The notes under the pieces are model-generated. The model did no database searches. It had not been told where the DNA came from and saw only the letters and a list, made by a program, of their open reading frames with translations. This document shows positions 29,217-57,692 of a stretch of DNA of 64,000 nt, piece by piece (the first letter of the stretch is position 1; each line of letters opens with the position of its first letter). The position numbers and the translations under genes are program-made. Origin of the DNA: an uncultured Mycoplasmatota bacterium (GTDB lineage Bacteria > Bacillota_I > Bacilli_A > RF39 > UBA660); the NCBI GenBank assembly GCA_946497925.1, contig CAMMMG010000001.1, positions 6,192 to 70,191 of the forward strand, in the 5' to 3' direction.

Positions 29217-29263
29217 ATGAATGAGCGAATAGTGACAGGTGTTGTTGTAGATGCCGGTCATGG
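29217..29263 (+). pseudogene. N-terminal fragment (15 codons) of an interrupted N-acetylmuramoyl-L-alanine amidase (Amidase_3) gene
   Basis: RBS AGAGGTG precedes ATG AAT GAG CGA ATA GTG ACA GGT GTT GTT GTA GAT GCC GGT CAT GG, giving MNERIVTGVVVDAGHG. This is the canonical Amidase_3 start (VVIDAGHGG). The frame then runs into element DNA and stops after 8 codons. Confidence 0.85.
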
Positions 29264-29375
29264 AGGAATGGGAGTATCCCAAAAATAGGGAAATGACTAT
29301 GAATACTGATAAATACAAGTAAAAGAGATACTTTAGTGAGAAAAGTGTCTTTTTTAGTGATATAATAGCTTTTAG

Positions 29376-30038
29376 GTGAGAAGTATTGTGAAAGATGAAA
29401 ATAAATATAAAACAAAGAAAGAAATTGTTAAAGAATTTGATAATATATTTAATGCATATAAATATTATCTTTATAATGAGTATAAGATTACAGATACATT
29501 TAATTATAAAAATATTTTAATAACTAGCATTTTGAATAGAAGTTTGGCTTTAATAGAGGCTTATAAAAGACTATTGCCAAGTAATAATATAATGGTTTTA
29601 AATTCTTTGATTAGACTTCAATTAGATAATTGCATTTTTGTGTATGCAATGCATATGCTAGTTGATGCTGGTTATAATATAGATGATTTGGGCGAAAATA
29701 TTATACATAAAAATAGAAAATTAAGTTCTTATAAAATAGGAAAGCAAAAAATGACAGATTTTTATTTGATAAGCAAAATTGATGAAAAATATGGGAATAA
29801 AATAAAAGAAATGTATAATTTTTATTGTAGGTTTGTTCATTTTTCTGATAGTGCTTTGATTTCTTCTTCACAATTAGTTGGTAATAATGGCTTATCAATT
29901 GGCATTACTAAAGACTATACTAGGTTTAAAAAACATATTATTGTGAATGCCAATTCATTTGTTAATTTATGCAAATTTTTGTTGATTTTGATTAGAAAAG
30001 AGTGGAAAGATATACCGAATGGTAAAAATTTAGTTTAA
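29376..30038 (+). CDS. hypothetical protein (220 aa), first gene of element 1
   Basis: GTG start after an extended -10 element TGATATAAT. No recognisable motif. Confidence 0.5.
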   Translation: MRSIVKDENKYKTKKEIVKEFDNIFNAYKYYLYNEYKITDTFNYKNILITSILNRSLALIEAYKRLLPSNNIMVLNSLIRLQLDNCIFVYAMHMLVDAGYNIDDLGENIIHKNRKLSSYKIGKQKMTDFYLISKIDEKYGNKIKEMYNFYCRFVHFSDSALISSSQLVGNNGLSIGITKDYTRFKKHIIVNANSFVNLCKFLLILIRKEWKDIPNGKNLV

Positions 30039-30039
30039 T

Positions 30040-31365
30040 ATGTTTGTTGTGAAAAATGTAAGTATGAAATTAATGATTATTAAAGTGAGGTGGATATTTA
30101 TAAATTTAAATTATGCAATATTTAGAAGTGAACCTATTTTTACATTGAATGATTTAGCACAGATAGGTTCTCATAATAAAAGGGAGAAGAAAGCTTATAA
30201 TTCTAATCCTGATATAAATAAAAATTTAAGTAAAAATAATATAGAATTAGTACCCTTGACAGATAAGTATGTTAAGGGTTTTTATAATTTAACTAAAGAA
30301 TATAAAAAAGAACATGATGAGAGAATGAAAACAGAACGTGAAGATAGAAAGAAAACTTTTAAACAGATGTTAGATAAGTCAAGAAATGTAGTTGCAGATG
30401 AATTATTATTTACTGCTACATCTGAATTTTTTGATAATATGACAATAGATGATATAAAAGAGTGGGCTAATACTTGTATGGAGTTTGTTTATGAAGATTT
30501 GGGTTATAAAAAAGAACAAGTTTTACATAGTGTAATTCATTTAGATGAAAAGACACCACATATTCATTGTGTAGTTGTTCCTTTAGTTAGAAAGTTTGAT
30601 AATAGAACTAAAACAGAGAGATATACTATATCTAAGAAACAATATATTAAAGATAATATTCATTTATCAGAATTACAAGATAAATATCATAAAAGATTAA
30701 TAGATAAAGGTTATGATTTGGAACGTGGTATTAAAGGTAGTGATAGAAAGCACATTAAGATTAAAGAATATAAGAATATTAATAAAAAATTAGAACAGAA
30801 CTTAAATACTAGAAATGAAAGATTAGATAAGGCTATGAATAAGTTAGAAGAACAAATGAAAACTACTAAAACTATTCCTTTTGATAAGAAACATATTGTT
30901 GTTGAAAAAGATACTTTTGATACTATGAATATGGTTATTATGGAAACTAAAAAGGTTAAAGAGTTACAGCCTAAAATAGAGCAAGTATTTAATGATATTG
31001 ATAGTTATGTAAATAGTTATAATTCTTTAGATAAAGAAAACAAAAAATATCAAAGAGAAATAAAGTCTCTTAAAACTAGAAATAGTAACCTTATAATAGA
31101 GAATAATAAGTTAAGAGATTATATTAATGCTATTTTGAAGGCGATAAAGACATTTTTTAGAAAGTTATTACAAATTGGTAATGAAATTACAAAAGAGAAT
31201 GTTACAAGCGAAATAAAAGACTATTATGATAATAATGACTTTAATCAAGATGATGTTTATGATATTGCTAATAATACTAGTAAAGAAGATGAACTATTTG
31301 ATTATGTAGGTATAAATTATAATGACAACTATGATATATCTAACGATGATGAATTAAGTTTATAA
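30040..31365 (+). CDS. mob: MobV-family relaxase (Mob_Pre plasmid recombination/mobilisation enzyme)
   Basis: The N-terminal block NYAIFRSEPIFTLNDLAQIGSHNKRE matches MobV motif I (SYAVxR...HNxR). HLDEKTPHIHCVVVP is the HxDE...PHxH metal-binding motif III. The C-terminus is coiled-coil. The true start is probably downstream of the track ATG. Confidence 0.8.
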   Translation: MFVVKNVSMKLMIIKVRWIFINLNYAIFRSEPIFTLNDLAQIGSHNKREKKAYNSNPDINKNLSKNNIELVPLTDKYVKGFYNLTKEYKKEHDERMKTEREDRKKTFKQMLDKSRNVVADELLFTATSEFFDNMTIDDIKEWANTCMEFVYEDLGYKKEQVLHSVIHLDEKTPHIHCVVVPLVRKFDNRTKTERYTISKKQYIKDNIHLSELQDKYHKRLIDKGYDLERGIKGSDRKHIKIKEYKNINKKLEQNLNTRNERLDKAMNKLEEQMKTTKTIPFDKKHIVVEKDTFDTMNMVIMETKKVKELQPKIEQVFNDIDSYVNSYNSLDKENKKYQREIKSLKTRNSNLIIENNKLRDYINAILKAIKTFFRKLLQIGNEITKENVTSEIKDYYDNNDFNQDDVYDIANNTSKEDELFDYVGINYNDNYDISNDDELSL

Positions 31366-31421
31366 TAAAACTAGCATGCTTTTATAGATGCTAGTTATAG
31401 AAAGTAGGATGTATATTAATT

Positions 31422-31997
31422 TTATCTACTACAATTAATTGTCTGTTTTGGTAAACAGTGATATATAACAGATAGTTTTAGAACTATCCATATGAGTACT
31501 CTTATAATATCATTATCTTTTATATTACTACTAATGCAGTAGGATTTTAAAAATGTAATTTTTATAGGTAATTCTATATTTCTATCATTAACATTAGTTA
31601 CTTTTGAATATAGATTACTTGCGATATTTTCTGCTTCTTCAATAATAGAACAATAGTCTATGTTATCTTTTAAATCGTCTTTATGAAAATTGAAAAAGTC
31701 AATTATATCATTAACTTGTTTTGATATTTCTTTTAAAGAAATTTGAGATTTAAGACTTTTTATTTCTGTTAGATAGTAGTTAATTAGTTCTTCCAAAATT
31801 AACTCTTTATCTTTTTCTTTTAAATTGTTAAATTTAGTAGTAAGTAATTTATCTAAGTAATAATGATATTCAATATCTTTAATTTTTAAGATGGTATTAT
31901 TAAAGTTATTTGTAATAGTCGATATATAGTTATTTAACTCATTATTTTTTTGCATATCTTTCCTTTCTTTTCCTACTTTCTTGGCACTATTCGTCAT
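31422..31997 (-). CDS. hypothetical protein (191 aa)
   Basis: Track ORF with an upstream RBS. No recognisable motif. Confidence 0.45.
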   Translation of the reverse strand: MTNSAKKVGKERKDMQKNNELNNYISTITNNFNNTILKIKDIEYHYYLDKLLTTKFNNLKEKDKELILEELINYYLTEIKSLKSQISLKEISKQVNDIIDFFNFHKDDLKDNIDYCSIIEEAENIASNLYSKVTNVNDRNIELPIKITFLKSYCISSNIKDNDIIRVLIWIVLKLSVIYHCLPKQTINCSR

Positions 31998-32105
31998 TTC
32001 TCTCTTTTCTTTTTTATTAATATGTAATTATAACTTACTACATAGTTAGTATGGTTTAAAGAATATAAACTTATTACAATGTTAGTAAGTTAATAAAGAA
32101 AAGAT

Positions 32106-32378
32106 GTGATGGTTATTAAGAGTAAACATTATGAGAATCAAGCTCGTAAAATATTAGCGAATAATATAGTTTATTTTAGACTTAAAAAGAATTGGTCTCA
32201 AGAAGATTTTGCAGATGAACTTGGGACTACTCCTACTTATGTTTCTAATATAGAAAATGCTAAACGTAATACGAGAATAGATTATATTGGACATATTGCT
32301 GATACTCTTGGAGTATCTTTAGAACAATTATTTGTAGAAAGAACTCCAGTTGTTAATCATCGTATTCCAAGACGATAA
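32106..32378 (+). CDS. XRE-family HTH transcriptional regulator
   Basis: WSQEDFADELGTTPTYVSNIENAKRN is an HTH_3 signature. Confidence 0.7.
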   Translation: MMVIKSKHYENQARKILANNIVYFRLKKNWSQEDFADELGTTPTYVSNIENAKRNTRIDYIGHIADTLGVSLEQLFVERTPVVNHRIPRR

Positions 32379-32513
32379 GAATATGCTATATATTCTTTTT
32401 TTGTGCCACTTTAATTATATCATTAATTATTTACTTTTCAATACATTAATTGCGCGAATATGTGGCTATTTTAAAAACTCTAAAATGTCATAATTAAATG
32501 AGAGGGTGGTAAA

Positions 32514-32822
32514 ATGGCTATTCATAGTTTTCAAGAGTTACAAGATTTATTACAAAATGTAAATAAAGAAGAAATGTATGTTAATATTTGTAGAAATATT
32601 AAGAAGTTTCGTTTAGAAAAATATAATGAATTTAAGAAACAAAACTTAAATACATCTATTAATCCATATTCTACTGAGAATATTTCAGCACTTTTAGATT
32701 ATAATCATAATCATTATAAGAGATTTGAAAGTGAGAATGATAGTACTAAGATGATACCTTTAGAAAAGCTAGTTAAATTATCTATTATTTTAGATAAAAG
32801 ATTAGATGATTTTATTAGGTAA
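32514..32822 (+). CDS. hypothetical protein (102 aa)
   Basis: RBS GAGGGTGG upstream. No recognisable motif. Confidence 0.45.
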   Translation: MAIHSFQELQDLLQNVNKEEMYVNICRNIKKFRLEKYNEFKKQNLNTSINPYSTENISALLDYNHNHYKRFESENDSTKMIPLEKLVKLSIILDKRLDDFIR

Positions 32823-32968
32823 CTATTTGTTAAAAAAAGTTTTAAAAAAAGTTTTGACTTTCAAGGAAAAAAATGGTAAGATATGCCTCGAAAAGAGGAG
32901 TATCATTAACAAATTTAAAATTACTAAAATCTTCTTTTTAATATTTTAAATGAAAAGGAGGCAATAAT

Positions 32969-33613
32969 GTGTTTGAAACGGAGGTTAGATTTTATTTTAA
33001 TAAAAATGAATCTACAAAAATTATATCTTATTTAAAGGATATAGATTCGCTTTCTTTTGATGGTAGATTTTATGAGGTAACTCAGCAATTTGATCATCCA
33101 GAAATTTCTAAGTCTTTTTATTCATTGCAAGTTGACGGCAGATTTAGAATTAGATTGTCAAAATGTGAATCGTTTAGTAAGTTAAAAGTATCATGGAAAC
33201 AGCGTTTAAAAAAAGATAAAATTGATAATAAAATTCATAAGGAAAGGGAAGTTGAAATTAATTTAAATCCAAATGAGTATAATAATTTAATGTATATATT
33301 GAATGAAGTTATTGGTATGAGACTTGTAGAGAGTTATGAAAGATATAGGAGTGTTTTTTCTAATAAAGAAGTAGAAATAGTTGTGGATGAGTATCCATTT
33401 GCTACAGCTATTGAGATTGAAAGCAAAACTGATGACTCTATATCATTAAATTGGTGGATAGACAGGTTGGGTTTAAAATTAGAAGATGCTTATAGTTTAT
33501 CTTGGGATGATAAATATAATGAATTATGTAAAGAACAAGGGAAAACAGCAACTAAGTTCGTTACATTTGAATCTGATATGCCGGAGTTAAAAAATTGTAT
33601 TTTTGGAGAGTAA
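32969..33613 (+). CDS. CYTH-domain protein (triphosphate tunnel metalloenzyme / CyaB-like)
   Basis: The N-terminal MFETEVRFYF (ExExK/R pattern) opens a ~200-aa fold with alternating charged beta-strand residues, typical of CYTH. It is the first gene of a 7-gene operon with overlapping stops and starts. Confidence 0.55.
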   Translation: MFETEVRFYFNKNESTKIISYLKDIDSLSFDGRFYEVTQQFDHPEISKSFYSLQVDGRFRIRLSKCESFSKLKVSWKQRLKKDKIDNKIHKEREVEINLNPNEYNNLMYILNEVIGMRLVESYERYRSVFSNKEVEIVVDEYPFATAIEIESKTDDSISLNWWIDRLGLKLEDAYSLSWDDKYNELCKEQGKTATKFVTFESDMPELKNCIFGE

Positions 33614-34484
33614 AATGGAAAGCATAAAGAAAATTGAAAATGGTAATCTTAATGATGTATATAAATTAGTTATAAATAATAAAAAGTATATTTTAAGAAT
33701 GACAGAATTTAATAATGATTGTGAGATAAATACATTGCTAATTTTAAAAAAATATAATTTGAACGTGCCAAATCTGTTAGCTCATTTTAGTGTTTATAAT
33801 AAAAATGTAATGTTATTAGATTATATTGAGGGAAGTAATCCTTTGGAAATTGATATTAAATTTATTACTGAACTTTTAAAACAGTTAAAAAAACTTCATA
33901 ATATTCCATATGAAGATTTGGAAGAAAAATCAATAAATACAATAGAAAATTTTGAAAGATTGAGTAAATATTATGTTGTAAGTAAAAAATCAAATTTTTT
34001 AAAGCAAAAAATTCATTTAATTAATTCGATTTTGGAAGATGTTAAAGATATACCTTTTGATAAAATGCCAAAATGTATAGTGCATTCTGACATAAAAAAA
34101 GAGAATGTACTAGTAAATAATAATACTGTTTATATAATTGATTTTGGAAATAGTTATATAGGAAATAGGCTAATAGATTTAGTTAGAATAATTATGTGGT
34201 TTTTTTTGAAAAACAATGATTTTAATATTGAAGAAATAGAAAACTGTTTTAAAGTTTATTTTGAAAATAATCATCTTATTGATTTAGAATATAATAGTCT
34301 TGGTAAAATAATAAAATTTTGTGTTATTTATAATTTAATTAAAGATGTTTATTTGTTTGAAAAAGGATTCTTATCTGAAAATTATGTTGTTAAAAATGAT
34401 ACAAAATGGTTAAATGTATTGGAAAACGAACAATTATTAGAGAAAGTAAAGGAGGCTTTAAATAATGCTAGTAGATATTCATAA
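33603..34484 (+). CDS. aminoglycoside phosphotransferase (APH)/choline kinase-like small-molecule kinase
   Basis: Catalytic loop VHSDIKKENVLV (HxDxxxxN) and IIDFGNS (a DFG-equivalent metal-binding motif). The N-terminal lobe is nucleotide-binding. Confidence 0.7.
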   Translation: MESKMESIKKIENGNLNDVYKLVINNKKYILRMTEFNNDCEINTLLILKKYNLNVPNLLAHFSVYNKNVMLLDYIEGSNPLEIDIKFITELLKQLKKLHNIPYEDLEEKSINTIENFERLSKYYVVSKKSNFLKQKIHLINSILEDVKDIPFDKMPKCIVHSDIKKENVLVNNNTVYIIDFGNSYIGNRLIDLVRIIMWFFLKNNDFNIEEIENCFKVYFENNHLIDLEYNSLGKIIKFCVIYNLIKDVYLFEKGFLSENYVVKNDTKWLNVLENEQLLEKVKEALNNASRYS

Positions 34485-35256
34485 AAATAAAGATTTAAGG
34501 AATATAGAGGTTAATAATATAGGAATTTGTGATTATAAATTGCCAATAATATTTAAAAATAAGAACAATATTTTTCCTACTATTGCAACTATTACTTCTA
34601 CAGTAGTTTTAGATAGGAACTTAAAAGGTGCTCACTTGAGTAGAATTTCTGAAGTCATTAATGATTCATTAATAAACAAAAATATTTCATTGGGTGATAT
34701 TAATGATATAACTAAAGAAGTTGCAGAAAGATCAGAAACTAAAGGTGCTAATTTAATATTATCATTCGATTTAATTAACAAAAGATTAACACCTATATCT
34801 AAAAAGGATTCTTATTTATCTTCTAAAATTACAATAATTAGTGATATTATTGATAAAAGTGTTAGTAATAAATTGATTGTAGAAACTGTTGGTACAATGC
34901 TTTGCCCATGTTCAAAAGCAATTTCTAAGTATGGTGCACATAATCAAATATGTAATTTAAAAGTTTCGTTAACAGGTAATATTGAAAGTATAGATGTTGA
35001 AAAAATTATTGATATTATGGAACATCAATTTAGTTCACCTGTTTATAGTACTGTTAAAAGAGAAGATGAGCAATACATTACTGAAAAGGCTTATGAAAAT
35101 CCTAAGTTTTCAGAAGACTTAATTAGAGATACTATAATAGCTATTCATAATTATTATTCTGTTGGAGATATAAGGGTAGAATTAGTAAACAATGAATCAA
35201 TTCATCAACATAATGTTTATTCAATGGGAGAGCTAAATGCAGATCTTAACTCATAA
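34465..35256 (+). CDS. folE2: GTP cyclohydrolase I type 2 (FolE2/MptA family)
   Basis: LKGAHLSRISEV (KGtHMSRF-like) and MLCPCSKAISKYGAHNQICNLKV (CPCS...GAHNQRS-like) are the two FolE2 signature blocks. Confidence 0.65.
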   Translation: MLVDIHKNKDLRNIEVNNIGICDYKLPIIFKNKNNIFPTIATITSTVVLDRNLKGAHLSRISEVINDSLINKNISLGDINDITKEVAERSETKGANLILSFDLINKRLTPISKKDSYLSSKITIISDIIDKSVSNKLIVETVGTMLCPCSKAISKYGAHNQICNLKVSLTGNIESIDVEKIIDIMEHQFSSPVYSTVKREDEQYITEKAYENPKFSEDLIRDTIIAIHNYYSVGDIRVELVNNESIHQHNVYSMGELNADLNS

Positions 35257-36085
35257 AGAATTGTATGACAGATATTTAATCAATGTTGGTGATGACTCTA
35301 AAAAGGAAATTAAATCTATATTAACAGCTATGGAAAAACATGGCTATTCTAGTTTAGTAAAACAAAAAATTAACATGAATGAAGAAAAGTTTTATTATTT
35401 ATATTCTTTGTTAATAAAATTAAAAGAAATATTTGATACAAGATATAACGATAGAAATGATTTAGAAATCTTTTTTGATTATGTATTACAAAGTATTGAT
35501 GGGATTCCAATTAACTTTTATGCTATTTTTTGTCCTGGTTATAATGATGATGGATACAAAGATAGGTTAGGTAAAACTACTACTATTAAAATACAAAAAC
35601 TTTTTCAAATGAAACAATTACTAGATAAGGAGAATATTTTACATAATATTCATTGTTTATATGCAGATATTTTTTTAGAGAATTGTGATGAACTTAAAAA
35701 TCCAAATTGGGAAAAGGAATTAGAGGTTAATAAAAATCTATTTAAGGAATATGCCATTAAATATTTGGAATGTGCAGATATTGATTTTTTATCAAGTTAT
35801 TTTCCTGATAGTAAATATCAGAGAGGATTTGTTGATTCTAGTATTATTAATGGTAATAATTATGAGTCATTTAGAAAATATAATAATAATTTTTATATGA
35901 AAATGGGCTGGGATGATGCTAAAGCAAAAGAACGTAATGATAAGTTATATACAATTTATAATATAATTGCTGAATATATTATCAATACAAAATCAAATGG
36001 TATTTATTTACCAATGGAGAATATGTATGCACGAACTAAAGTGTTTACTAAGAAAAAAGTAGGTTCAATGTATTTTAAATTGTAG
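35237..36085 (+). CDS. hypothetical protein (282 aa) in the cargo operon
   Basis: Translationally coupled to its neighbours by a 20-nt overlap. No recognisable motif. Confidence 0.5.
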   Translation: MQILTHKELYDRYLINVGDDSKKEIKSILTAMEKHGYSSLVKQKINMNEEKFYYLYSLLIKLKEIFDTRYNDRNDLEIFFDYVLQSIDGIPINFYAIFCPGYNDDGYKDRLGKTTTIKIQKLFQMKQLLDKENILHNIHCLYADIFLENCDELKNPNWEKELEVNKNLFKEYAIKYLECADIDFLSSYFPDSKYQRGFVDSSIINGNNYESFRKYNNNFYMKMGWDDAKAKERNDKLYTIYNIIAEYIINTKSNGIYLPMENMYARTKVFTKKKVGSMYFKL

Positions 36086-36097
36086 GGGGTAGTAAAT

Positions 36098-38110
36098 ATG
36101 AATTATAAAGAAAAAGGTAATCTGTTTTGTAAAGAAATAAATCAATTATTAGCAAATAAAAACGAATATTATGCTTTGGTTACTGGTGGTGGATTTGCTT
36201 ATGATTCTGTAAAGTATTCGGATACTATACAAGGTGATTATGATTTTATGATAGTATATAAAGATGTTGAGCAATTAGATTCTTTAATAGAGGAATTAGA
36301 AAAAATTCCATTTGATTTTGAAAAGAAATATTTAGTTTCTGATTTACATTTATTAAAAAGTAAAGTAATAGATATTATAAGATTATGTGGTAAATATCGT
36401 GGCACCAAGAGTACTATTAACTTAGTAAATATAGAGTTAATTAAAAGAATAGCAAATTTGGAAACAAGAATCCCTTTAAAGAAAATTGCCCATAATAGAA
36501 ATACTGGTTTGTTTTTTGCATATGGTTCTGATAATAGCAGAATAATTGTAAACTTTTTATCGCCATCATTTGTTAGTGGTGATGGCGAAGATCACTATAT
36601 TCATTTAGATTTCTCTAATATTATTGTAGATAATAACATTTATTTTGGTATATTAGCAGATGCTATTTTAAAAGGTTTTAATAGTAATTATGATAATATA
36701 GGTTTTAAAGAAGTGCGTCAAAAGATGATAAAAAATATTAATAACTTTTTTAAAAATAATAAAATCGATAATAGTAATTATCTAAACTTGTATGCTAACA
36801 ATATATATTTTCCAGAAAATTTAAAAAGACAATTACTTGATGAATTCAATAAATATGGTAAAAATGTTTTTGAAGAAAAAAATACTACATCTAATACAAA
36901 ATATCCAATTATTTTTGCTGTTGATAATCCAATTAATAGAAAAATGAATCCATTTAATTTTATAAATAATAAAAGTTATAGATGTTCTTTTGATGATTAT
37001 ATTAATGAAATGCAAAAAAATGAATATGATAGACAATATTTGCTAGACGCATTAGCTAAATTGTTTGGATATGTTGCTTTTTCGAATAGTAAAATAGAAG
37101 ATGATAGTTATATAGAAAATATCATATCTAAATTTAGTGTATATGGTAATAACGATTTGTATTTTGAAGGAATTGAAAAATATTCTGTTAATACTATTTT
37201 TGGTTCATTTATTAATGATTTAAAAGTAAATAGATTTAAATATAACCCTATTTTATATAAAAATTATTTGCTAATGTTGTTAAGTTTTTTGTCATTTTAT
37301 AATAATAAAAATATTTTTGATATGTCTTTAAAATATGAAGTTAATGTTCAAGAATTGGTTAAACCTGAATTAGATAATACTAAAATGAATAGTGAAGTAA
37401 TATTAAAGTTGTCTAATTTTGATGATATAGGTATGTATCATAATTATACATCAAAGGTTATGCCTGGATATACACAAACAGAATGTGATTTTTTAGAAAA
37501 AGTATTTATAGAAAAAAAAGAGCCTGTTTTAGATGTTATGTGTGGATATGGAAGAATAGCTAATGAATTAGTTAAAAGAAATTATAAAAATGTGTATGGC
37601 GTTGATTTTTCTGACTATTCTTTTTTGAATGTAGATAAGGATTTTATTTTTTCTAAAGATGATTTCTTTCATTATCGACCAGGTATATTATTTAAATATT
37701 TATATAGCTTATATAATTGTTATGAAAATAAAGAATATTTGAGAAAAGTAATTGCTAAAATGACAGAATTGTCTGCTGATAATGCTTTTGTTATTTTAGA
37801 TGTTTTTAACAAAGAATGGCGAGATAAAATAGATTCTGAATTTTATAAATTGCTTTTTGATAGTTCTCCTGTAAAATTAGAAATTAGTAGACATTATGAT
37901 GATGAAACTGGTATTGAAACAACTAAATATTTAAAAACAATGTCTGATGATGAACAAGAAGAATATAGTTTTTCTCAAAAGTTTTTTACACAGGCTGAGA
38001 TAGAGGAGTCTATAGATTATAAAAAATGGGATATAGATTTTTTAACATCTGATGTGGTTGGATCAAGAAATAATAATCAGAAAAGAATTTTGGTTTTAAA
38101 GAGGCGGTAA
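36098..38110 (+). CDS. fusion protein: N-terminal pol-beta-type nucleotidyltransferase domain plus C-terminal class I SAM-dependent methyltransferase domain
   Basis: The N-terminus VTGGGFAYDSVKYSDTIQGDYDFMIV fits hG[GS]...DhDh. The C-terminus LDVMCGYGRIANELVKRNYKNVYGVDFSD fits MTase motif I (hhDhGxGxG) plus an acidic post-I residue. Confidence 0.6.
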   Translation: MNYKEKGNLFCKEINQLLANKNEYYALVTGGGFAYDSVKYSDTIQGDYDFMIVYKDVEQLDSLIEELEKIPFDFEKKYLVSDLHLLKSKVIDIIRLCGKYRGTKSTINLVNIELIKRIANLETRIPLKKIAHNRNTGLFFAYGSDNSRIIVNFLSPSFVSGDGEDHYIHLDFSNIIVDNNIYFGILADAILKGFNSNYDNIGFKEVRQKMIKNINNFFKNNKIDNSNYLNLYANNIYFPENLKRQLLDEFNKYGKNVFEEKNTTSNTKYPIIFAVDNPINRKMNPFNFINNKSYRCSFDDYINEMQKNEYDRQYLLDALAKLFGYVAFSNSKIEDDSYIENIISKFSVYGNNDLYFEGIEKYSVNTIFGSFINDLKVNRFKYNPILYKNYLLMLLSFLSFYNNKNIFDMSLKYEVNVQELVKPELDNTKMNSEVILKLSNFDDIGMYHNYTSKVMPGYTQTECDFLEKVFIEKKEPVLDVMCGYGRIANELVKRNYKNVYGVDFSDYSFLNVDKDFIFSKDDFFHYRPGILFKYLYSLYNCYENKEYLRKVIAKMTELSADNAFVILDVFNKEWRDKIDSEFYKLLFDSSPVKLEISRHYDDETGIETTKYLKTMSDDEQEEYSFSQKFFTQAEIEESIDYKKWDIDFLTSDVVGSRNNNQKRILVLKRR

Positions 38111-38112
38111 AT

Positions 38113-38649
38113 ATGTCAATTATAGCAATTGAAGGAACTAACTGTAGTGGAAAATCAACATTGATAGATTATTTAGTTAAATATTATAATTTTAAAGCTT
38201 CAAAATCAGTACCTGAGTGGTTTAGACCATATATACCTTTTGCAAGAGAGTTACAACCTCAATTACAACGAAAAATATATGAGATAGGACATATTGCAGC
38301 GTACTATGATGCACTAAAAGAAAAAAGTTGTACTATTTTTGATCGTTGTTATTTTTCAACATATATTCGATTATCATATCAAGAAAGTAAAACTGTAAAT
38401 GAGTGTGTAGATCAAATTGCTTCTTTTCACTATAAACCTGATTTAATAATTATTCTAACTGTTCCTAAAGAAATTATAGAGCAAAGGTTGGTAGAAAGAA
38501 ATGAACAGTTTAATCAGGATTTTTTTGAATATGAAAATTCTGTTTATTTACAATTATCATTCAAATATGATAACATTATATTAGTTGATAATAGTAAAGA
38601 CATAAAATTTTGTACAAATGAAATATTGAGAAAAATAAAAAGGAGATAA
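38113..38649 (+). CDS. P-loop deoxynucleoside/thymidylate kinase-family kinase
   Basis: IAIEGTNCSGKSTL is the Walker A motif of dNK/TMPK. FDRCYFS is DRY/ERS-like. The LID region is also present. Confidence 0.55.
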   Translation: MSIIAIEGTNCSGKSTLIDYLVKYYNFKASKSVPEWFRPYIPFARELQPQLQRKIYEIGHIAAYYDALKEKSCTIFDRCYFSTYIRLSYQESKTVNECVDQIASFHYKPDLIIILTVPKEIIEQRLVERNEQFNQDFFEYENSVYLQLSFKYDNIILVDNSKDIKFCTNEILRKIKRR

Positions 38650-38652
38650 GTT

Positions 38653-39591: not shown

Positions 39592-39768
39592 ATTCTATTA
39601 TAAACTAACTTTTAGACAAGTTAGTAACCCACTACGATATTGGCAGAGCCAATAACGAATGTGGGCAAAGATAGTTTCCTTTTGAAACCCCAATTAGCGA
39701 CAAATTGTGAATCGTTACAATATAATATTGTTGCATAAAAATAGCCTTATTGCTAAAAAGCAAAAAGG

Positions 39769-40362: not shown

Positions 40363-40440
40363 TAAATTACACCTCTTTTTCTTGATAAGAAAATTATAAC
40401 ATATAATGATGTAAAAATCAACAAAAAAGTAATTATGTTG

Positions 40441-40497
40441 TTGACAAACTCAATACTTAATGTTATAGTATTAGTAAATTGATGTAAAACTCATCAA
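40441..40497 (+). promoter_or_regulatory. sigma-A promoter plus palindromic operator
   Basis: TTGACA, a 17-nt spacer, then TATAGT. The perfect inverted repeat TTGATG-N7-CATCAA follows at 40479-40497, between the promoter and the RBS of the 40518 gene. Confidence 0.5.
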
Positions 40498-50419: not shown

Positions 50420-50432
50420 GAGGTGAAGTTTT

Positions 50433-52937
50433 TTGAATCAAAAATGGTTATTATGTGATTTACATATGCATTCACAATATTCAAAAATAAATAAACCAGG
50501 TGATAAAAGTAGAGTAAAAGATATGGTAGCTAGTGAATTTGTTGATATACTTAATCAGTCAGGTGTTGAATTATTTAGTATAACTGATCATAATTATTTT
50601 TCTGATGTTTACTATGATGAAATCGATAAATATATTACCGATAATGATTTAAATATGAAAATTATAAATGGTGTTGAATTAGATGCATATGTTGAATTAA
50701 AAGATGGAACAAAGGATAGTATTCATATTTGTATATATTTTTCAGATAGTACTGATAGAAAAAAGCTTAATAAAGTAATTTATTCATTATACAGAGATAA
50801 CAACGATAATATGTTAGAACCTTTATTTATGGAAATAATAAATAAATTGACTGAACTCAATACAAAGTTTATCATAATTCCTCATGGAGATAAGCATAAG
50901 GGACTATTTAAAATAATTAAAAATTTAAATAGTGAAGATGCCGTTGATTTTTATAAGTATTCAATGTATAAAATATTTAATGCATTTGATGTGAGACCAG
51001 GATTTTATAGTGTAAGCGAATCATTTTGGGCTACAAATTTTTACGAAAAAACTAAGTCATTTGATAAAATTCTGTCAAATTATGATGATGATAAATTAGA
51101 AAATTTGAAGAGTAATATTTCAAATAAAATAAAGGATGATACTTACGAGTTAACGGAAGAAGAACTGGAGATATATAGATATATATTAGATTATGGAAGT
51201 TATTTTGCATATTTCACTTTTTCTGATTGGCATAATAAAGAAGATTACAAACCAGAAATAAATAATTTCGTATTTGGAACACTTGAATATGGCTTTGAAG
51301 CAGTAGAATTAGCAACATTAGATCCTAAATCGCGAATAGAACAATCTCATGATAAATATATTGCAATTCCTTCTACATTATTAAAAAAAGTTGAATTTAA
51401 AATAAAAGATGATAAGAAAGAAATTTATTTTTCCCCTGGATTAAATGCTATTGTTGGTAAAAGAGGCAGTGGTAAGTCACTATTATTATCTGTTATAAAA
51501 AATTTAGTAGAAAAAGACGCAGAAGATGGTGCATTAAATAAGTATAAAAAGTTAGAAATTTCAGATATTATTGGACAAAATCGCGATAATATTAACATTT
51601 CTTTAGGCAGTTTAAGTTCTGTAGCGTTCTTGAATCAAGATCAAATTAAAGAGATATTTGAAAATCCAGAAAACGCACAAGAAAATATATCTAAAAATTT
51701 TAAGGAAATTAAGAATTTAAATTTAAATGATTTGATAAATATATCTGATGTAGCTAGTAAACTTAAGCCATATAATAAAAATTATAAAAATCTAACATCG
51801 AATATTATTTCAATAAAGAAAATTGATGATTATAATTTAAGTGCATATGAAGAACTTGATAATGTTAATTTTAAAAAATATTTTAGTGATAGTATTAACT
51901 CTTTGAGACTTGCCATAAATGAATTAGAAAATTTGGGATTAGATAGTAGTAAATTAGAAATAGAACTTTCTAATTTATATAAATATCAAAAATATTATTT
52001 AAAAATGATTGAATTATACAATACAATTATTAATAAGAATAATGCAGTTATTAATGATATTAATTCAAAGAAATCAGCAAATGAGATAACAATAAAGCAG
52101 AATATAAATACTATAAATAGTACGATTAAAGAATTAAAAAATAATTTTACAATCCAATTAAACTATGAAAAATTAAAATTATTAATTAACAATTTTAGTT
52201 TTGACAATCCTCCTGTTGAAGTGTCGATTAAGGGTAAATATTTATTTGTAACATATTATGATATACCTACAAATATGAGAGATATAATATTAGATAAAAT
52301 TACAGATACAATTATTCGTTCAAAAGAATTCGGAGATATTGAAAATTATCTTTCGGGTGATAAGAATAAGCAATTGAAGTCGGGAAAGAAGAATCTTTCT
52401 GAAGAATTAGATAAATATATAAAGAGTGATACATTCAAATCAAAAAAAGAATTTTATGAAATAATAGATGCATCTATTGATTATAAGAAACAAATAAGTA
52501 GTATGAACGAATTAGAAGATTACTTAAAACAAAATAAAATAAGAAATTTAACGGACGCATCACCTGGTATGAAAAGTGTAGCGTATTTGGATATGTTGTT
52601 TGATTTAGATGAGACAATTCTGATTTTAGATCAACCAGAAGATAATATAGATAATGACTATATAAGTAAATATTTAGTTCCTAATATTAAGGGTAAAAAG
52701 AAGATTAAACAATTAATATTTGTAACTCATAATCCGTCTGTTGCTGTATATGGCGATTCATTTAACTATGTGTATGTAGAAAATAACAATAAAATAAATT
52801 ACACAAATTATTTAATAGAGAGAAAAGAAGATAAGGATAAGTTGATAAATATTTTAGAAGGTGGAAAGAATAGTTTCTCAAATAGAAATAAAAAATTTGG
52901 AAATGTATTAGGAGATGAAGAATATGGAAATTATTAA
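50433..52937 (+). CDS. fusion of an N-terminal PHP-domain metal-dependent phosphoesterase/nuclease with an ABC/AAA_21-type ATPase separated by a long coiled-coil/insert
   Basis: PHP motifs are LCDLHMHSQYS and ITDHNYFS. Walker A is SPGLNAIVGKRGSGKSLL (about residue 340). Walker B/D-loop is ILILDQPEDNIDNDY (about residue 735), then FVTHNP (H-loop-like). Confidence 0.7.
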   Translation: MNQKWLLCDLHMHSQYSKINKPGDKSRVKDMVASEFVDILNQSGVELFSITDHNYFSDVYYDEIDKYITDNDLNMKIINGVELDAYVELKDGTKDSIHICIYFSDSTDRKKLNKVIYSLYRDNNDNMLEPLFMEIINKLTELNTKFIIIPHGDKHKGLFKIIKNLNSEDAVDFYKYSMYKIFNAFDVRPGFYSVSESFWATNFYEKTKSFDKILSNYDDDKLENLKSNISNKIKDDTYELTEEELEIYRYILDYGSYFAYFTFSDWHNKEDYKPEINNFVFGTLEYGFEAVELATLDPKSRIEQSHDKYIAIPSTLLKKVEFKIKDDKKEIYFSPGLNAIVGKRGSGKSLLLSVIKNLVEKDAEDGALNKYKKLEISDIIGQNRDNINISLGSLSSVAFLNQDQIKEIFENPENAQENISKNFKEIKNLNLNDLINISDVASKLKPYNKNYKNLTSNIISIKKIDDYNLSAYEELDNVNFKKYFSDSINSLRLAINELENLGLDSSKLEIELSNLYKYQKYYLKMIELYNTIINKNNAVINDINSKKSANEITIKQNINTINSTIKELKNNFTIQLNYEKLKLLINNFSFDNPPVEVSIKGKYLFVTYYDIPTNMRDIILDKITDTIIRSKEFGDIENYLSGDKNKQLKSGKKNLSEELDKYIKSDTFKSKKEFYEIIDASIDYKKQISSMNELEDYLKQNKIRNLTDASPGMKSVAYLDMLFDLDETILILDQPEDNIDNDYISKYLVPNIKGKKKIKQLIFVTHNPSVAVYGDSFNYVYVENNNKINYTNYLIERKEDKDKLINILEGGKNSFSNRNKKFGNVLGDEEYGNY

Positions 52938-53199
52938 AAAGAATGAGGCTATACAATTAGTTGAAAATCAAAAAATTATTGAGGAATATAAGTTTGATAA
53001 TGAAATTAATTTTTCAAAATTAATGGAATATTTATTATCATTAAACTTATCTAAAAAAATCACATTAGACGATAAAGTCTCTAATAAAAAATTGGAAGAA
53101 GAAAATTTGTTAAAAATAATAACTAATATTATAAATGACTACAATAATAAAACAGAGGAATTAGAGACTTTTAAGAAGGAAATAGAGAATAAAGATTAA
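52915..53199 (+). CDS. small acidic/coiled-coil protein (94 aa), overlaps the end of the PHP-ATPase gene
   Basis: Track ORF with a 23-nt overlap with the upstream gene. Possible operon member. Confidence 0.4.
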   Translation: MKNMEIIKKNEAIQLVENQKIIEEYKFDNEINFSKLMEYLLSLNLSKKITLDDKVSNKKLEEENLLKIITNIINDYNNKTEELETFKKEIENKD

Positions 53200-53454
53200 T
53201 GATATATAATAAATAGCTGATAGATAAAAATGTAGATTGTGTCCGGTGACTGTCCTAATATTTTGTGTTAAAATGATAATATAGGAAAGTTGTAAGGGGA
53301 TAGCAATAATTTGTATTTTTGCAAATTATTTTTTCTTCCACATATCCTTATTTTATAACGAATTGTGAAGCATTTAATGGAAATTGTGCCATTGCAATTC
53401 CTATTATTTTGTGGTATTATGGTAATATAGGGTAATTATAAAAAGGGGCTATTT

Positions 53455-53479
53455 GAGAGATTTTTTATCTCTCTTTTTT
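53455..53479 (+). terminator. rho-independent terminator closing the element-2 operon
   Basis: Stem GAGAGAT / ATCTCTC followed by TTTTTT. Confidence 0.5.
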
Positions 53480-53727
53480 CATGCCCATTTTTATTTTTAT
53501 CAAAAGAAAGAGGGTGAGTTATATTTTTAAAAATTGATAATGAATTTTATAAAATAGTTGAAATATTAAATGAAATTTTGATTTAAAAACTCCTAAACTG
53601 TCGGAGACTATTAGTGGGTTTTAGGGATATTCTCTAACAAGCTAGATAGGTGTGTATACACCATGCTTGATATATTGTATTATACGGATATGTAACCTCA
53701 AAATAGGATTTAATTGTAACCTAAAAT

Positions 53728-54324
53728 GTGGTAGAAAATGAAAGGAGAAATATGGAGTTTAAATCAATGGAAAAGTGGCGCGTTTTACAGAAGTTTAATA
53801 TGAGTGAAAAGCAGTATAAGAGACTAGTGAAAAGATTAGAAAGAAGACATCCTAATGAAAGATGGATTGATGAACATTTTGCTCAGAATGGTGAAAGAGT
53901 AGTATATCTAAAATTGGAACTTGTAGAATGGATAGAAGAAGTTTATTTAAATAACAATCTATTTTATTTAGATGCTGAAATTGTTTTCTTTAAAAAACAA
54001 ATATTAAGATTAGAAGACGAGCTTAATTTTCCTCATAATGAATTTGAATATAAAGATATATCTTTATATGATTTAAGAAGTTATTTTAATAGAAGTAAAA
54101 ATGTTATTGGTGTTGCAGTTAATAGAATGGAAAAAAGAAATAATCAATTATTTAAGTATTTAAAAGATGGTAAAGTAATAATTTCTAAAGAAGGCGTTAA
54201 ATGGTTAAGTGAAAACTATTTCCGTAAAGATTATTTAAAAAAACTAGAATTTTACAAATTAGAACTTCAAAATGTTAAGCGAAAACGAAATAGATTAAAA
54301 GAATATAATATTTTCTATTACTAG
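53728..54324 (+). CDS. hypothetical basic protein (198 aa) of element 2
   Basis: RBS AAAGGAGAAATATG upstream. Lys/Arg-rich. Possibly a DNA-binding or regulatory protein. Confidence 0.45.
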   Translation: MVENERRNMEFKSMEKWRVLQKFNMSEKQYKRLVKRLERRHPNERWIDEHFAQNGERVVYLKLELVEWIEEVYLNNNLFYLDAEIVFFKKQILRLEDELNFPHNEFEYKDISLYDLRSYFNRSKNVIGVAVNRMEKRNNQLFKYLKDGKVIISKEGVKWLSENYFRKDYLKKLEFYKLELQNVKRKRNRLKEYNIFYY

Positions 54325-54574
54325 ATTAGTTTGAAATATAACTAATTTTTTTATGCTCTAATTTTGATAATAAAGTCTTATAGTCGTTCTTATTTCATAA
54401 AATAAAAGGAGAGGTGTAGATTAGTGAACATAACTGAAACTTTCGATAAAGATAAAAACTTGGTTGATTTAATAGAGGAGTACTTAAAATTGATGTTAGA
54501 AAATAGTAAGCAGTAAAAGTTTGTGGTATAATGATATTGCTTATTGAAGTTATGCACATTGGAAGGAGTAGTAA

Positions 54575-56200
54575 GTGTATAACAATATAATACAAGCACC
54601 AAGTTTTTATAGAGTAGGTTTATATATCAGATTATCAGAAAGTGATGAAGATAAAACTTATGAGTCAGAGAGTGAAAGTATAATCAATCAAAGAAATTTA
54701 TTAATGGATTATGTAAAAATGAGTGGATATACTTTGGTTGATGAATATGTAGATGATGGATTTACTGGAACTAACTTTGATAGACCTTCTTTTCAAAGAT
54801 TATTAAAAGATATTGAAAGTGGTCGAATCAATTGTGTAATCACGAAAGACTTATCAAGATTAGGTAGAGATTACATTCAATGTGGTTATTATGTAGAACA
54901 ATATTTTCCACAAAAGAAAATTAGATATATTTCTATACTAGATCAAGTTGATACATTTCTAGAAAGCGCTAATAATGACATTGCTCCATTTAAAGCTTTG
55001 TTTAATGATATGACTAGTAAAGATACTTCTAAGAAGATTCGTTCAATACTAAAAAATAAAAAAGAACAAGGTAAATTTATAGGTAGTAAACCTTGTTATG
55101 GATATATGAGAGATCCACTTGATAAAGGACATTTAATACCCGATCCAGAAGTTGCTCCCGTTGTTAAAAAGATATTTAAAATGGCTCATTCTGGAACTGG
55201 AGTAAGCGACATAGTATCATACTTAAATGATAATAAGATATTAAGTCCTAGTATGTATAAAAATACTAAATCATCTTCAAGACAAAAAGTGAACGTATGG
55301 ACAATATCCTCAGTAAATAAATTATTAAAAAATAGAATGTATACAGGGGATATGGTACAAAATGTTCAAACAAAATTAAGCTATAAATCTCAAAAGAAAG
55401 TTGCTTTAGAAAAAGAGTTTTGGATAATAGTAGAAAACACTCATGAACCTCTAGTTAGTAAGACAGTATTTGAAGCAATACAAAATGCTCCTGCAAGAGT
55501 AAGAACAACTCATTGTAATAGAGAAAAAAGATTATTAGAAAATCTACTTGTATGCAAAGAATGCGGCAATTCTTTAAGTGTTCTTTATAGAAAAAATAAA
55601 AACTATAAGGATGGAAAATATTGGAGTGTTAATTGCAATAAATATGCAAGAGATCCAAGAAGACATTTGTGTTATCCACATTTCTTTCCTTATGATAAAC
55701 TAGAAGAAAAAATAATGAGTGTTATTAAAACTACTTGTCAAAAATATTTAGATAGTTTAAATATCAAAGAGTTATCTGAAAGAGTATTACAAGATAGAAC
55801 AAAGGAAAAGAATGATAGGCAAAAGGAAAAGCAACAATTATTAAATGAGATTGATGAATTAAAAAGAAAATCTGATGCTTTATATGATGACAAATTTAAT
55901 GGGATAATAAGTGTTGGTACTTATACAAGAATCTCTACGCAAACTGAAAAACAAATATCAGCCTTAAATTATAGAATTTATGAAATAGATAATGAAGAAA
56001 ATCAGATTAAAGAAGATACAAAAGAAATAGCTAAACATGAAGAACAAATAAAATCACTTTTAAATTTAGATGAACCCAACAGAGAACTCATAAAAACTTT
56101 AGTAAAAAATATTTATATTGATAAAGATAGAAATATAGAAATTCAATACAGATTTAAGATGCTAGATGATATAAAAACTAATTATGAAGAAATAAATTAA
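54575..56200 (+). CDS. large serine recombinase (element 2 integrase)
   Basis: YRVGLYIRLSESDEDK is the resolvase catalytic domain. A recombinase domain, a zinc ribbon (CKECGNS...CNKYAR) and a coiled coil follow. It is about 40% identical to the element-1 recombinase. Confidence 0.9.
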   Translation: MYNNIIQAPSFYRVGLYIRLSESDEDKTYESESESIINQRNLLMDYVKMSGYTLVDEYVDDGFTGTNFDRPSFQRLLKDIESGRINCVITKDLSRLGRDYIQCGYYVEQYFPQKKIRYISILDQVDTFLESANNDIAPFKALFNDMTSKDTSKKIRSILKNKKEQGKFIGSKPCYGYMRDPLDKGHLIPDPEVAPVVKKIFKMAHSGTGVSDIVSYLNDNKILSPSMYKNTKSSSRQKVNVWTISSVNKLLKNRMYTGDMVQNVQTKLSYKSQKKVALEKEFWIIVENTHEPLVSKTVFEAIQNAPARVRTTHCNREKRLLENLLVCKECGNSLSVLYRKNKNYKDGKYWSVNCNKYARDPRRHLCYPHFFPYDKLEEKIMSVIKTTCQKYLDSLNIKELSERVLQDRTKEKNDRQKEKQQLLNEIDELKRKSDALYDDKFNGIISVGTYTRISTQTEKQISALNYRIYEIDNEENQIKEDTKEIAKHEEQIKSLLNLDEPNRELIKTLVKNIYIDKDRNIEIQYRFKMLDDIKTNYEEIN

Positions 56201-56332
56201 GTAATGAAAATAGGGTGGTAAAATTTGTTAATCACACAATCTCACCATCCCCTATACTATTTTTAGAAAAAATGAAAATGCAGTAAAATCAAGGAAAAAT
56301 GATAGCCTAATCACATAAAATCTTTCCGGAGG

Positions 56333-57692
56333 TGGAGAAGGTGCAGAAGTTATTTATGCTTTACGTAATAATTCTACTTTAGCTCAGTCTATCTTAGAAG
56401 AGATAGGTAGTGAAGGGCAAATTATGCGTAAGTATTATCAAAGAAGACTTCCTGAAGATCCATCTAAAGACTATTATTATATTATTAGAGAGACTGCTCC
56501 TATGCAATCATTACTTGTAGAATATGGATTTATTGATAATGCTAATGATAGGGTTAAGTTGCAAAATGATTTATTAAATTATGTAGAAGCAGTTGTTAGA
56601 GCGATTGCAGGGTATGCTGGTGTTCCTTATACTCCACCTGAAGGAAGTGGTACTAACTTTTATACTGTAGTTAAAGGTGATAGCCTTTGGAGTATAGCTC
56701 GTAAATTTGGTGTTACAGTACAGGCTTTGAGAGATGCTAATAACTTAAAAAGTGATACTCTTACTGTTGGTCAACTTCTTAGAATTCCTACTAGTGGTGG
56801 TACTGATAATGGAACTGGTGGTAATGTTACTTATACTGTGCAAAGAGGAGATAGTCTATGGAGTATTGCAAGTCGTTATGGAATAAGTGTTAATGATTTA
56901 AGACGTGCTAACAATTTAACTAGTGATACTCTTAGTATAGGACAAGTTTTAATTATTCCTGGTGTTGGTAATGGTAATGAGGGTAATGATAATATAACAG
57001 GACCTTCTACTACCTATACAGTACAAAGAGGAGATAGTTTATGGAGTATTGGTAATAGATTTGGTGTAACAGTTCAACAACTTAGGGATGCTAATAATTT
57101 AACAAGTGATGTTTTAAGTGTAGGACAAGTCTTAACTATTCCTGGTGTTAGTGGAGATGAAGATACTGGTGATAATAATGGAACAGTATTCTATTACACA
57201 GTAGAACGAGGAGATAGTCTTTGGAGTATAGCAAGACGTTTTGGTGTTACGGTACAAGAAATAAGAGATGCTAATGATTTAGTTAGTGATACTTTAAGTG
57301 TTGGACAATCTTTAATAATCCCTGGTCTTAGTGCAGATGAAGACTTAGAAGATGATAATAATAATGAAACTACTCCTTCTACTTATACTGTACAATCAGG
57401 TGACAGTCTATGGAGTATTGCTAATAAATTCGGTATTACTGTCAATGACTTAAAGAATGCTAATGGATTAACATCTAATCTTCTTTCTATAGGACAAGTA
57501 CTAATTATTCCTAATTCTAATACTAATAATCCAACTAATCCTAGTTATACAACCTACACAGTACAAAGAGGAGATAGTCTTTGGAGTATAGCTAATAACT
57601 TTGGTGTTACTGTTGATGCTATTAAGACGTTAAACAATTTGACATCTAATTTACTTTCTGTTGGTCAAGTATTACAAATACCTAATAATTGA
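56333..57692 (+). pseudogene. C-terminal part of the interrupted N-acetylmuramoyl-L-alanine amidase: end of the Amidase_3 domain plus six LysM repeats (track ORF 56424..57692 is the portion from an internal ATG)
   Basis: In frame from 56333: GGEGAEVIYALRNNSTLAQSILEEIGSEGQIMRKYYQRRLPEDPSKDYYYIIRETAPMQSLLVEYGFIDNANDRVKLQNDL. This is the Amidase_3 C-terminal block (vLrettmPAvLvElGFisN). Six YTVxxGDSLWSIAxxFGVTVxxLxxxNxL repeats follow, which are LysM. Confidence 0.85.

Follow-up and report, generated by a model that had tools for sequence, protein, structure and literature searches.

Why does the gene of a peptidoglycan amidase lie on a bacterial chromosome in three pieces, and could such a gene be made whole again? 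The question is raised by a stretch of 64,000 nucleotides (the window; contig CAMMMG010000001.1) from an uncultured gut bacterium with low GC content, a member of the Bacilli (class) closely related to Candidatus Onthousia. A first-pass annotation had described an amidase gene (Amidase_3 plus six LysM repeats) interrupted by two blocks, each with its own large serine recombinase (LSR). The explanation favoured here, and considered quite probable as a whole, is that a probable sporulation amidase is an attB locus with three slots for LSR elements, that two of these slots are filled in the window and that the gene would be rebuilt by excision.

All three pieces lie on the + strand and translate as first described. 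Piece 1 (MNERIVTGVVVDAGH plus 2 nt; 29217-29263) ends just past the first zinc-ligand His (DAGH|GG). Piece 2 (GADPGAV...ISNHINAGG) occupies 43294-43518. Piece 3 (56333-57692) begins with GEGAEV and supplies the remaining zinc ligand, the catalytic Glu and then six LysM repeats. When both blocks were deleted in silico the pieces joined without a frameshift, as had been predicted, into 1632 nt (543 codons and a stop). The spliced protein carries one full-length Amidase_3 domain (residues 9-182, profile positions 1-172 of 174, E 3e-32) with the six LysM repeats C-terminal to it (Pfam). Its best solved relative is the Clostridioides difficile autolysin Cwp6 (5j72), and the alignment spans DPGHGG, SIHYNA, GVEIYY and VECAFIDN. 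The complete set of Amidase_3 motifs (GHGG, HxNA, GxE and the catalytic Glu in (V)E.gFi) is present in the spliced protein only. When the active site was placed via the Cwp6 alignment, none of the three single fragments held a complete one, so the amidase should be off in this chromosome.

Each block ends, as had been noted, in a + strand recombinase gene of its own. LSR1 (41656-43251) ends 42 nt before junction 1, and LSR2 (54575-56200) 132 nt before junction 2. Both proteins belong to the LSRs by their Resolvase, Recombinase and Zn_ribbon_recom domains (Pfam), with the N-termini VGVYCRLSDED and VGLYIRLSESDE; they are 33% identical to each other. The blocks are called element 1 (29264-43293, 14,030 bp) and element 2 (43519-56332, 12,814 bp), both on the + strand.

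Relatives were collected by a genome scan with the spliced catalytic domain, which gave 80 loci from uncultured gut Bacilli, several of them named Candidatus Onthousia (L-numbers denote loci of relatives and P-numbers proteins). In L001 (CALVUX010000008.1), whose flanks are 99.4% identical to the window, the amidase is uninterrupted (544 aa), both sites are empty and both elements are missing. Window positions 26489-29266, 43288-43518 and 56307-58323 align head to tail onto L001 7272-12268. This is an uninterrupted orthologue of the kind that the first-pass annotation foresaw. It is colinear with the spliced sequence, with 99% amino-acid identity over the catalytic domain and 93-99% DNA identity along the gene. 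Strains with no element (L001), one element or two (the window, L103 and L104), likewise foreseen, all exist.

Comparison of attB in L001 with attL and attR in the window gave the cores as CATGG(A/T)GG for element 1, an extension of the CATGG read earlier, and GGAGG for element 2, exactly as read earlier; no base was gained or lost. The attL1 core (CATGGAGG, 29259-29266) was compared with attB1 of L001 (ACATGGAGGTGC) and with the attR1 core (CATGGTGG, 43289-43296). The attL2 and attR2 cores (GGAGG) lie at 43514-43518 and 56328-56332; all four are on the + strand. Shared cores of 5-8 nt at both elements, with hybrid attL and attR sites, fit the pattern predicted for LSR-mediated recombination of attP with attB. 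From the empty sites and the lossless cores it follows that each element inserted precisely and independently of the other. They had been called tandem, a loose term, since they occupy two different att sites 225 bp apart, not one site. The inverted-repeat arms reported around the cores exist (ATaTTTGGGA and TAAtCACATAA) but do not stand out from shuffled controls (equally high scores in 141/500 and 51/500 cases), and the dyad symmetry of attB1 and attB2 is weak (8/20 positions). Serine recombinases break and religate DNA at a fixed dinucleotide, and the exact 543-codon open reading frame (ORF) would therefore be restored if both elements were excised.

As read from the relatives, the amidase gene is a hotspot with three fixed predicted attachment sites, each served by an LSR clade of its own, and with variable cargo. 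The two options left by the first-pass annotation, a developmentally rebuilt enzyme or an insertion hotspot, both gain support, the second from the three att sites, the three LSR clades and the many cargo variants. In the mechanism proposed here three short stretches of the amidase would act as attB, each for its own LSR clade: site 1 at DAGH|GG after the zinc-ligand His, site 2 at NHINAGG|GEGAEV and site 3 at the LysM GD(S/T)L motif. Sites 1 and 2 encode the most conserved catalytic motifs of the amidase.

Site 1 is filled in L008-L013 by orthologues of LSR1, full length and 97-99% identical (amino acids) in L009, L012 and L013, with partial C-terminal matches in L011 (96%) and L008 (81%); element 2 is missing from all six loci. 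The right-hand 3.9 kb of element 1 are 96-97% identical at the same site in L009, L012 and L013. The flanking host genes, in contrast to these LSR1 orthologues, are just 58-92% identical, which points to a recent horizontal spread of the site-1 elements. Their use of the site is strict, the same codon being hit in six species.

Site 2 is filled in L081-L093 at exactly the same codon as in the window. Its users comprise at least four further LSR lineages with 45-53% amino-acid identity to LSR2, and their cargo includes HpaII and MutH/Dcm restriction-modification, nSTAND, Fic and a group II intron reverse transcriptase. The element-side arms have a common AATCAC/TAC/TAA motif, which is also present in the left arm of attB2. 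Genes for group II intron reverse transcriptases and a Fic protein were seen between the LSR and the junction (L086 3855-5126, L087 5932-7203 and L088-L093), the reverse transcriptase ORF being split in two on some contigs.

Site 3 is new with respect to the first-pass annotation, which described two sites. It lies within YTVxxGD(T/S)|L and is filled in L012, L020, L021, L028 and L095-L102 and in proteins P0002, P0003, P0005 and P0051. In these loci the amidase ORF ends with ...GD(T/I)(I/L)FMGN.. inside a LysM repeat (the interrupted end reads ...IFMGN(N/S)E before the stop), and in L020 and L021 it picks up right after the LSR. The positions are L012 3560-3640, L020 10780-10810 and 18661, L021 10620-10650 and 16499, L028 10600 and L095 6984; the LysM repeat used differs between genomes. 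The site-3 recombinases form a third clade (88-96% amino-acid identity within the clade), and restriction-modification cargo is found here as well (DpnII and two methylases in L095).

Each pairing of sites has an example. Sites 1 and 2 are both occupied in the window and also in L103 and L104, where site 2 holds other elements; sites 1 and 3 are both occupied in L012 (~760 bp apart) and sites 2 and 3 in P0051 (>1 kb apart). The piece-2 fusion ORF of the window was found in no other record; look-ups with LSR1 did give double-occupied contigs. A double insertion could in principle be an artefact, elements 1 and 2 of different strains having been joined in assembly through the common piece 2. At 225 bp piece 2 is short and could join two strains if the window is a metagenome assembly, which would undercut the picture drawn here, and strains with site 1 only or site 2 only co-occur in public metagenomes. 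Double occupancy on independent contigs from other samples (L103, L104, L012 and P0051) makes such a chimera very improbable, and the favoured explanation, with two slots truly filled, is pursued below.

The interrupted gene is a conserved chromosomal gene of the host, and its product is an N-acetylmuramoyl-L-alanine amidase made in the cytoplasm. Around it lie housekeeping genes (RsgA, NUDIX / HU, DUF1294, CCA enzyme, DnaD, Nth, PBP1A and RecU) that are stable across genera, which argues for a host gene and not a prophage lysin; no phage genes were seen in the neighbourhoods of the window and its relatives. As Amidase_3 starts at residue 9, there is no room for a signal peptide. The protein is not an equivalog of the spore cortex amidase CwlD, reaching 80.9 bits with NCBIfam TIGR02883 against a cut-off of 221.6.

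This low CwlD score and the relationship to the autolysin Cwp6 would suit a vegetative autolysin or a domesticated prophage endolysin, in which case the insertions would modulate autolysis; Amidase_3 plus LysM without a signal peptide is, moreover, a common endolysin layout. The stable housekeeping neighbours and the lack of phage genes nearby are difficult to reconcile with this, as are the conserved promoter, of CATA type rather than sigmaA type, and the pairing with cwlJ. We regard it as improbable and return to the sporulation amidase.

A putative sigmaK/E-type promoter of the amidase, GC-N16-CATATTTTA (29173-29199, + strand), is followed by the ribosome-binding site AGAGGTG (29204-29210) and the ATG at 29217. 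The arrangement xAC-N16-CATAnnnTA-N4-(A)GGTG-N4-6-ATG is kept upstream of 29 orthologues, down to 58% amino-acid identity. In 27 distinct upstream regions CATAnnnTA is invariant, including the final T and A of the -10 element, and a C at -17 is found in 93%; the spacer and the three inner -10 positions vary freely. The arrangement agrees with the sigmaK consensus, which has AC at -35 and CATA... at -10, that of sigmaE differing by ATA at -35 (Publication PMC3789822). The structure of the locus is solid in its anatomy, in the empty sites of the sister strain, in the reuse of sites by dedicated LSR clades and in the conservation of the promoter.

The same promoter geometry, AC-N16-CATA, recurs at a second cell-wall gene of the window (2861-3292, - strand), which had been read as a SleB-like cortex hydrolase. 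A Hydrolase_2 gene (Pfam) is indeed present, but it encodes a 143-aa CwlJ-type protein, 44% identical to Bacillus subtilis CwlJ over the whole length. Its upstream region (3307-3333) reads AAC-N16-CATAAAGTA-tact-AGGTGA-ttat-ATG. In the window cwlJ and the amidase are 26 kb apart. In more than 20 related genomes cwlJ lies immediately downstream of the amidase, convergent and with a CATA-type upstream motif (L022-L025, L029, L031, L033, L036, L037 and others, near 11200-11950).

CwlC and CwlH of B. subtilis are late mother-cell hydrolases that act in spore release (PMC517825). Given this role, the sigmaK-type promoter, the lack of a signal peptide and the pairing with cwlJ, the amidase is probably a mother-cell sporulation lysin comparable to CwlC. 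The possible sporulation link raised by the first-pass annotation gains support on three counts: the promoter is kept in 29 orthologues, a signal peptide is missing, and the promoter recurs at the CwlJ orthologue. We infer that the amidase is specific to the mother cell, that its split would be tolerated since the enzyme would be dispensable in growth and that excision would return its function.

Several points weigh against a sporulation gene rebuilt by excision. The -35 element of the window's genus is GC where the consensus has AC. CATAnnnTA was found upstream of 2 of 57 window genes, about the chance level, so that the case for the promoter is one of conservation and geometry. Beside cwlJ, no sporulation gene turned up when the window ORFs were scanned with Pfam and NCBIfam; SpoIIID, Spo0A, SpoVT and SpoIVA (tblastn) had no match in 1.6 Mb, which comprises amidase neighbourhoods only and is therefore uninformative. 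Peptidoglycan-containing RFN20 families were predicted to form spores (PMC10868615), in conflict with the 0% that SpoMAG gave an RFN20 metagenome-assembled genome (PMC12536801). Exact searches with the reconstructed sites gave no match to attP1 or attP2 in IMG/VR or to attP1 in JGI metagenomes. The elements are young, mobile and strain-variable, and element 1 must excise anyway because mobilisation requires excision. Finally, L016 has a 5'-truncated amidase and lacks an LSR in the vicinity, which shows that loss of the gene can occur. The sole match to attP2 in the JGI metagenomes (L094) was rejected as a chance 21-mer on a high-GC contig with dense ORFs and no blastn similarity to the window.

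What becomes of the gene when the recombinase is gone can be read from relics. In the LSR-less relics L003, L004, L002 and L015 the promoter and 5' end are duplicated and the amidase is intact: the old promoter, codons 1-16 and attL1 are followed by cargo genes, a second promoter and the intact amidase. The L002 relic keeps a remnant of an HTH_3 gene, and in that of L015 a decayed piece 2 is left, whose end coincides exactly with site 2 (NHINA). The positions are 6440-6520 and 9974 in L003, 2403-2480 and 9974 in L004, 9718-9925 in L002 and 5604-5759 in L015. The relics suggest repeated fixation of cargo, with duplication bringing the gene back, perhaps by way of recombination at a conserved non-coding block. 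Because the amidase behind the duplicated promoter and 5' end is intact, they also suggest that an intact amidase is selected once excision is impossible. A different trace is seen in L016 (9900-10050), where the amidase minus its first 13 codons and promoter is joined to ...AGCACATGG|CGG, resembling an attR1 trace. The upstream genes are ordinary ones of the host (dltA/dltC-like, PrsW-like), and a recombinase is missing for at least 10 kb; the junction is probably a deletion scar.

These traces bear on the simplest alternative, that the insertions are dead ends: the amidase would be dispensable, its conserved motifs would be no more than convenient att sites and carriers would live without the enzyme. 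Most close relatives among the proteins do carry a split gene (25 of 27 inspected clusters with >=84% identity are fragments made by insertion; distant orthologues with ~60-70% identity are nearly all intact), L016 keeps a truncated copy without a recombinase, and some relatives possess paralogous amidases (L026 and L029). Yet all the amidase fragments seen keep open frames and sequences close to those of uninterrupted orthologues, at least four times, after loss of the recombinase module, duplication brought back an intact copy, and gene and promoter are conserved down to 58% amino-acid identity. We consider dead-end inactivation a serious but somewhat doubtful possibility, and continue with the rebuilt sporulation amidase.

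How might excision be timed? Genes of the LSR2 family have sigmaA-like TGnTATAAT promoter elements (TGgTATAAT upstream of LSR2 itself), and any timing of excision would therefore fall to a partner protein. In all three clades every LSR gene is directly preceded by a small ORF of 30-65 aa: window 41449-41592 and 54424-54516 (47 and 30 aa, both + strand), L081 7171-7266, L087 2398-2490, L082 7988-8146, L086 7310-7423, L020 16893-17090 and L095 11892-12071. The small ORFs have the loose common motif (V)KY.I..FK.D.K...E.I.E.L and are candidate recombination directionality or accessory factors, their similarity being too weak for certainty. The arrangement of CATAAAATA with a ribosome-binding site occurs in three cases in the window, before the LSR2 small ORF, cwlJ and the amidase. 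A sporulation-type promoter for the recombinases or small ORFs was considered and rejected, since no proper -35 accompanies the CATAAA upstream of the small ORF, and in some elements this motif may be under coding constraint.

The favoured explanation could be extended to a programmed rearrangement, in which both elements would be excised in the terminally differentiating mother cell, as skin is from sigK and SPbeta from spsM, so that the amidase is restored at the moment of its use while the spore chromosome keeps them. The target would fit, with its sigmaK-type promoter and lack of a signal peptide, and every tested LSR element that splits a mother-cell gene behaves in this way (PMC4191935, PMC5595907, PMC5025042). 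The sigmaA-like LSR promoters resemble those of systems timed by a separate directionality factor, each LSR is preceded by a small ORF (that of LSR2 with CATAAAATA and a ribosome-binding site like cwlJ and the amidase), and LSR-less relics always have a restored amidase, L016 excepted. This extension has to face the lack of excision products in IMG/VR and JGI and of sporulation genes beyond cwlJ in the DNA scanned. The elements are recent, horizontally moving and strain-variable, and the relaxase of element 1 means that excision for transfer suffices to explain the recombinases. An acceptable -35 is missing from the small-ORF promoter, which may be conserved on account of coding sequence. TndX-type recombinases, furthermore, are reported to excise without a partner. 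Overall we take a programmed rearrangement to be conceivable and somewhat improbable. A wider form of it is a multi-slot 'safe harbour', in which the germ-line copy of a gene of use to the dying mother cell alone would hold up to three independent elements, mostly defence islands. All of them would have to excise there by means of their own recombinases and small partners, so that spore release would be a multi-lock rearrangement, in a reduced-genome lineage for which sporulation is disputed. This is a tentative and somewhat unlikely proposal.

In the proposed mechanism the LSRs would ride on non-phage integrative elements with variable cargo, mostly restriction-modification or other defence; in the window, a mobilisable element with a TndX-like LSR and Mob_Pre would hold site 1 and a defence island with an LSR and Type IIG restriction-modification site 2. 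A phage origin was rejected, as no PHROG matches to phage structural or lysis genes were obtained in element 1 or element 2. Both elements are oriented in the same way as the host genes.

Element 1 encodes a Mob_Pre relaxase (30040-31365, + strand; Pfam PF01076, E 1e-27). No type IV secretion or coupling-protein family was detected among 17 of its 18 listed ORFs (a 114-aa overlapping ORF was left out of the scan). With LSR1 and Mob_Pre present and no conjugative pore family seen, it is classed as an integrative mobilisable element. A cargo operon of seven genes (32969-39591, + strand; Pfam) encodes CYTH, an APH-type kinase, FolE2 GTP cyclohydrolase, a 282-aa protein of unknown function, a 670-aa methyltransferase-like protein, a dNK/thymidylate-kinase-like protein and Q_salvage. 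Q_salvage is a protein of queuosine salvage (DUF2419). The operon resembles a module for the modification or salvage of 7-deazapurines or nucleosides; three of its proteins scanned with PADLOC matched no system and had just weak kinase-domain similarity. To the right of the operon follow an HTH_3 (cI-like) regulator (39769-40362, - strand; Pfam), an HTH_36 DNA-binding protein (40901-41386, + strand; Pfam), the 47-aa small ORF and LSR1, which has a DUF4368 tail in addition to the domains named above. The order HTH_36, small ORF, LSR is also found in site-2 elements. LSR1 is 32% identical to TndX of Tn5397 over its full length; at this identity it is a relative and not a member of the TndX/TnpX group, despite the DUF4368 tail.

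The border between variable cargo and the conserved regulation and integration module was placed by alignments at a conserved non-coding block with a terminator hairpin (39620-39790, + strand). This block of ~170 nt has two hairpins and a strong terminator and recurs in relatives (L002 9615-9795, L005 338-520, L003 6136-6320, L004 9725-9900, and L009 and L013 near 6330-6560); in several genomes it is also found directly upstream of the amidase promoter. It could not be called as an RNA gene, with no Rfam family match and just three covarying pairs.

Element 2 carries systems recognised by PADLOC and is an anti-phage defence island on this basis. Its genes, all on the + strand, include a Type II methyltransferase (44342-45313; PADLOC MTase_II, E 4e-122), a 1363-aa Type IIG restriction-methylase (45324-49415; PADLOC REase_MTase_IIG, 1506 bits; Pfam Eco57I and ResIII) and an 834-aa Ppl-like ATPase of AAA/SMC type (50433-52937; similarity to the PADLOC Ppl model, E 1e-20). 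A small replication-initiator-like DNA-binding protein is also encoded; no relaxase was found in element 2.

Over the whole window (1-64000) the GC content is ~25%, the GC skew is strongly positive and nearly all genes between 3.3 and 61 kb are on the + strand. A second strain-variable region (window 20686-23300, L001 3474-4393) holds genes for a 532-aa SEC-C/SWIM-motif protein and a PRiA4_ORF3-family protein.

In cultured Bacillus and Clostridium species, LSR elements have been described that interrupt a small number of sporulation genes, as a rule one element to a gene. The present locus adds a peptidoglycan amidase as a target class, a gene whose three att sites are matched by three recombinase clades, the coexistence of two elements in natural strains and defence-system cargo in place of prophage remnants. 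Should excision prove developmental, the locus would be the first in Bacillota where several elements rearrange one sporulation gene; it would show how spore-formers carry defence islands at little cost and would be indirect evidence that uncultured Mollicutes-like gut Bacilli still sporulate. The locus also yields three natural recombinase/attB/attP families with short defined targets, which could serve as orthogonal genome-engineering tools.

Among known systems, the closest counterparts of the split gene are skin in sigK (SpoIVCA) and SPbeta in spsM (SprA/SprB) of B. subtilis, together with vfbin (spoVFB), vrin (spoVR) and gin (gerE). As in the skin/SPbeta class, an LSR element would lie inside an ORF with a mother-cell promoter, the recombinase gene stands at the end of the element and precise excision would restore the frame; the element encodes the recombinase, and the splice matches the uninterrupted orthologue, as for skin, SPbeta and gin. 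Like gin (PMC5595907), the window elements are non-phage. They appear to behave like the intervening elements of spore-formers; full membership of the class would also require two of its defining features, a sporulating host and mother-cell excision. The window further differs from the skin/SPbeta class in its new amidase target, in three att sites per gene with separate recombinase clades, in carrying two elements at once, in a cargo of defence and mobilisation functions that is strain-variable and moves horizontally, and in its host, an uncultured member of the Bacilli with a reduced genome.

The target itself resembles CwlC and CwlH of B. subtilis, which likewise have an N-terminal Amidase_3 domain, no signal peptide, C-terminal wall-binding repeats and, as predicted for the window gene, a late promoter of mother-cell type. 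The wall-binding module of CwlC and CwlH consists of SPOR repeats, whereas that of the window amidase is six LysM repeats; the likeness is one of sequence features and not of established orthology.

Recombinase-bearing elements also interrupt genes of heterocyst-forming cyanobacteria (nifD, fdxN with XisF, and hupL), where the targets are needed only in a terminally differentiated cell, and several interruption elements in one gene have been reported there. XisF is the second-best NCBIfam match of both LSRs, far below the cut-off. The window case differs in phylum, cell type and target, and developmental excision is conjectural here.

In type, element 1 appears closest to the clostridial mobilisable transposons Tn5397 (TndX) and Tn4451/Tn4453 (TnpX with the Mob/Pre protein TnpZ), which likewise combine an LSR with DUF4368 and a Mob_Pre relaxase without conjugation machinery. 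It differs from them in its low identity, strict single site, length of 14 kb, other cargo and HTH_3/HTH_36 regulatory module. The SCCmec islands (Ccr serine recombinases, rlmH/orfX) are comparable as LSR-driven, site-specific carriers of exchangeable cargo at one conserved gene, and CcrB is the top NCBIfam match of the LSRs, with ~100 bits where the cut-off is 900. SCC enters its target gene at the 3' end and leaves it active, whereas the insertions in the window destroy the active site of the amidase.

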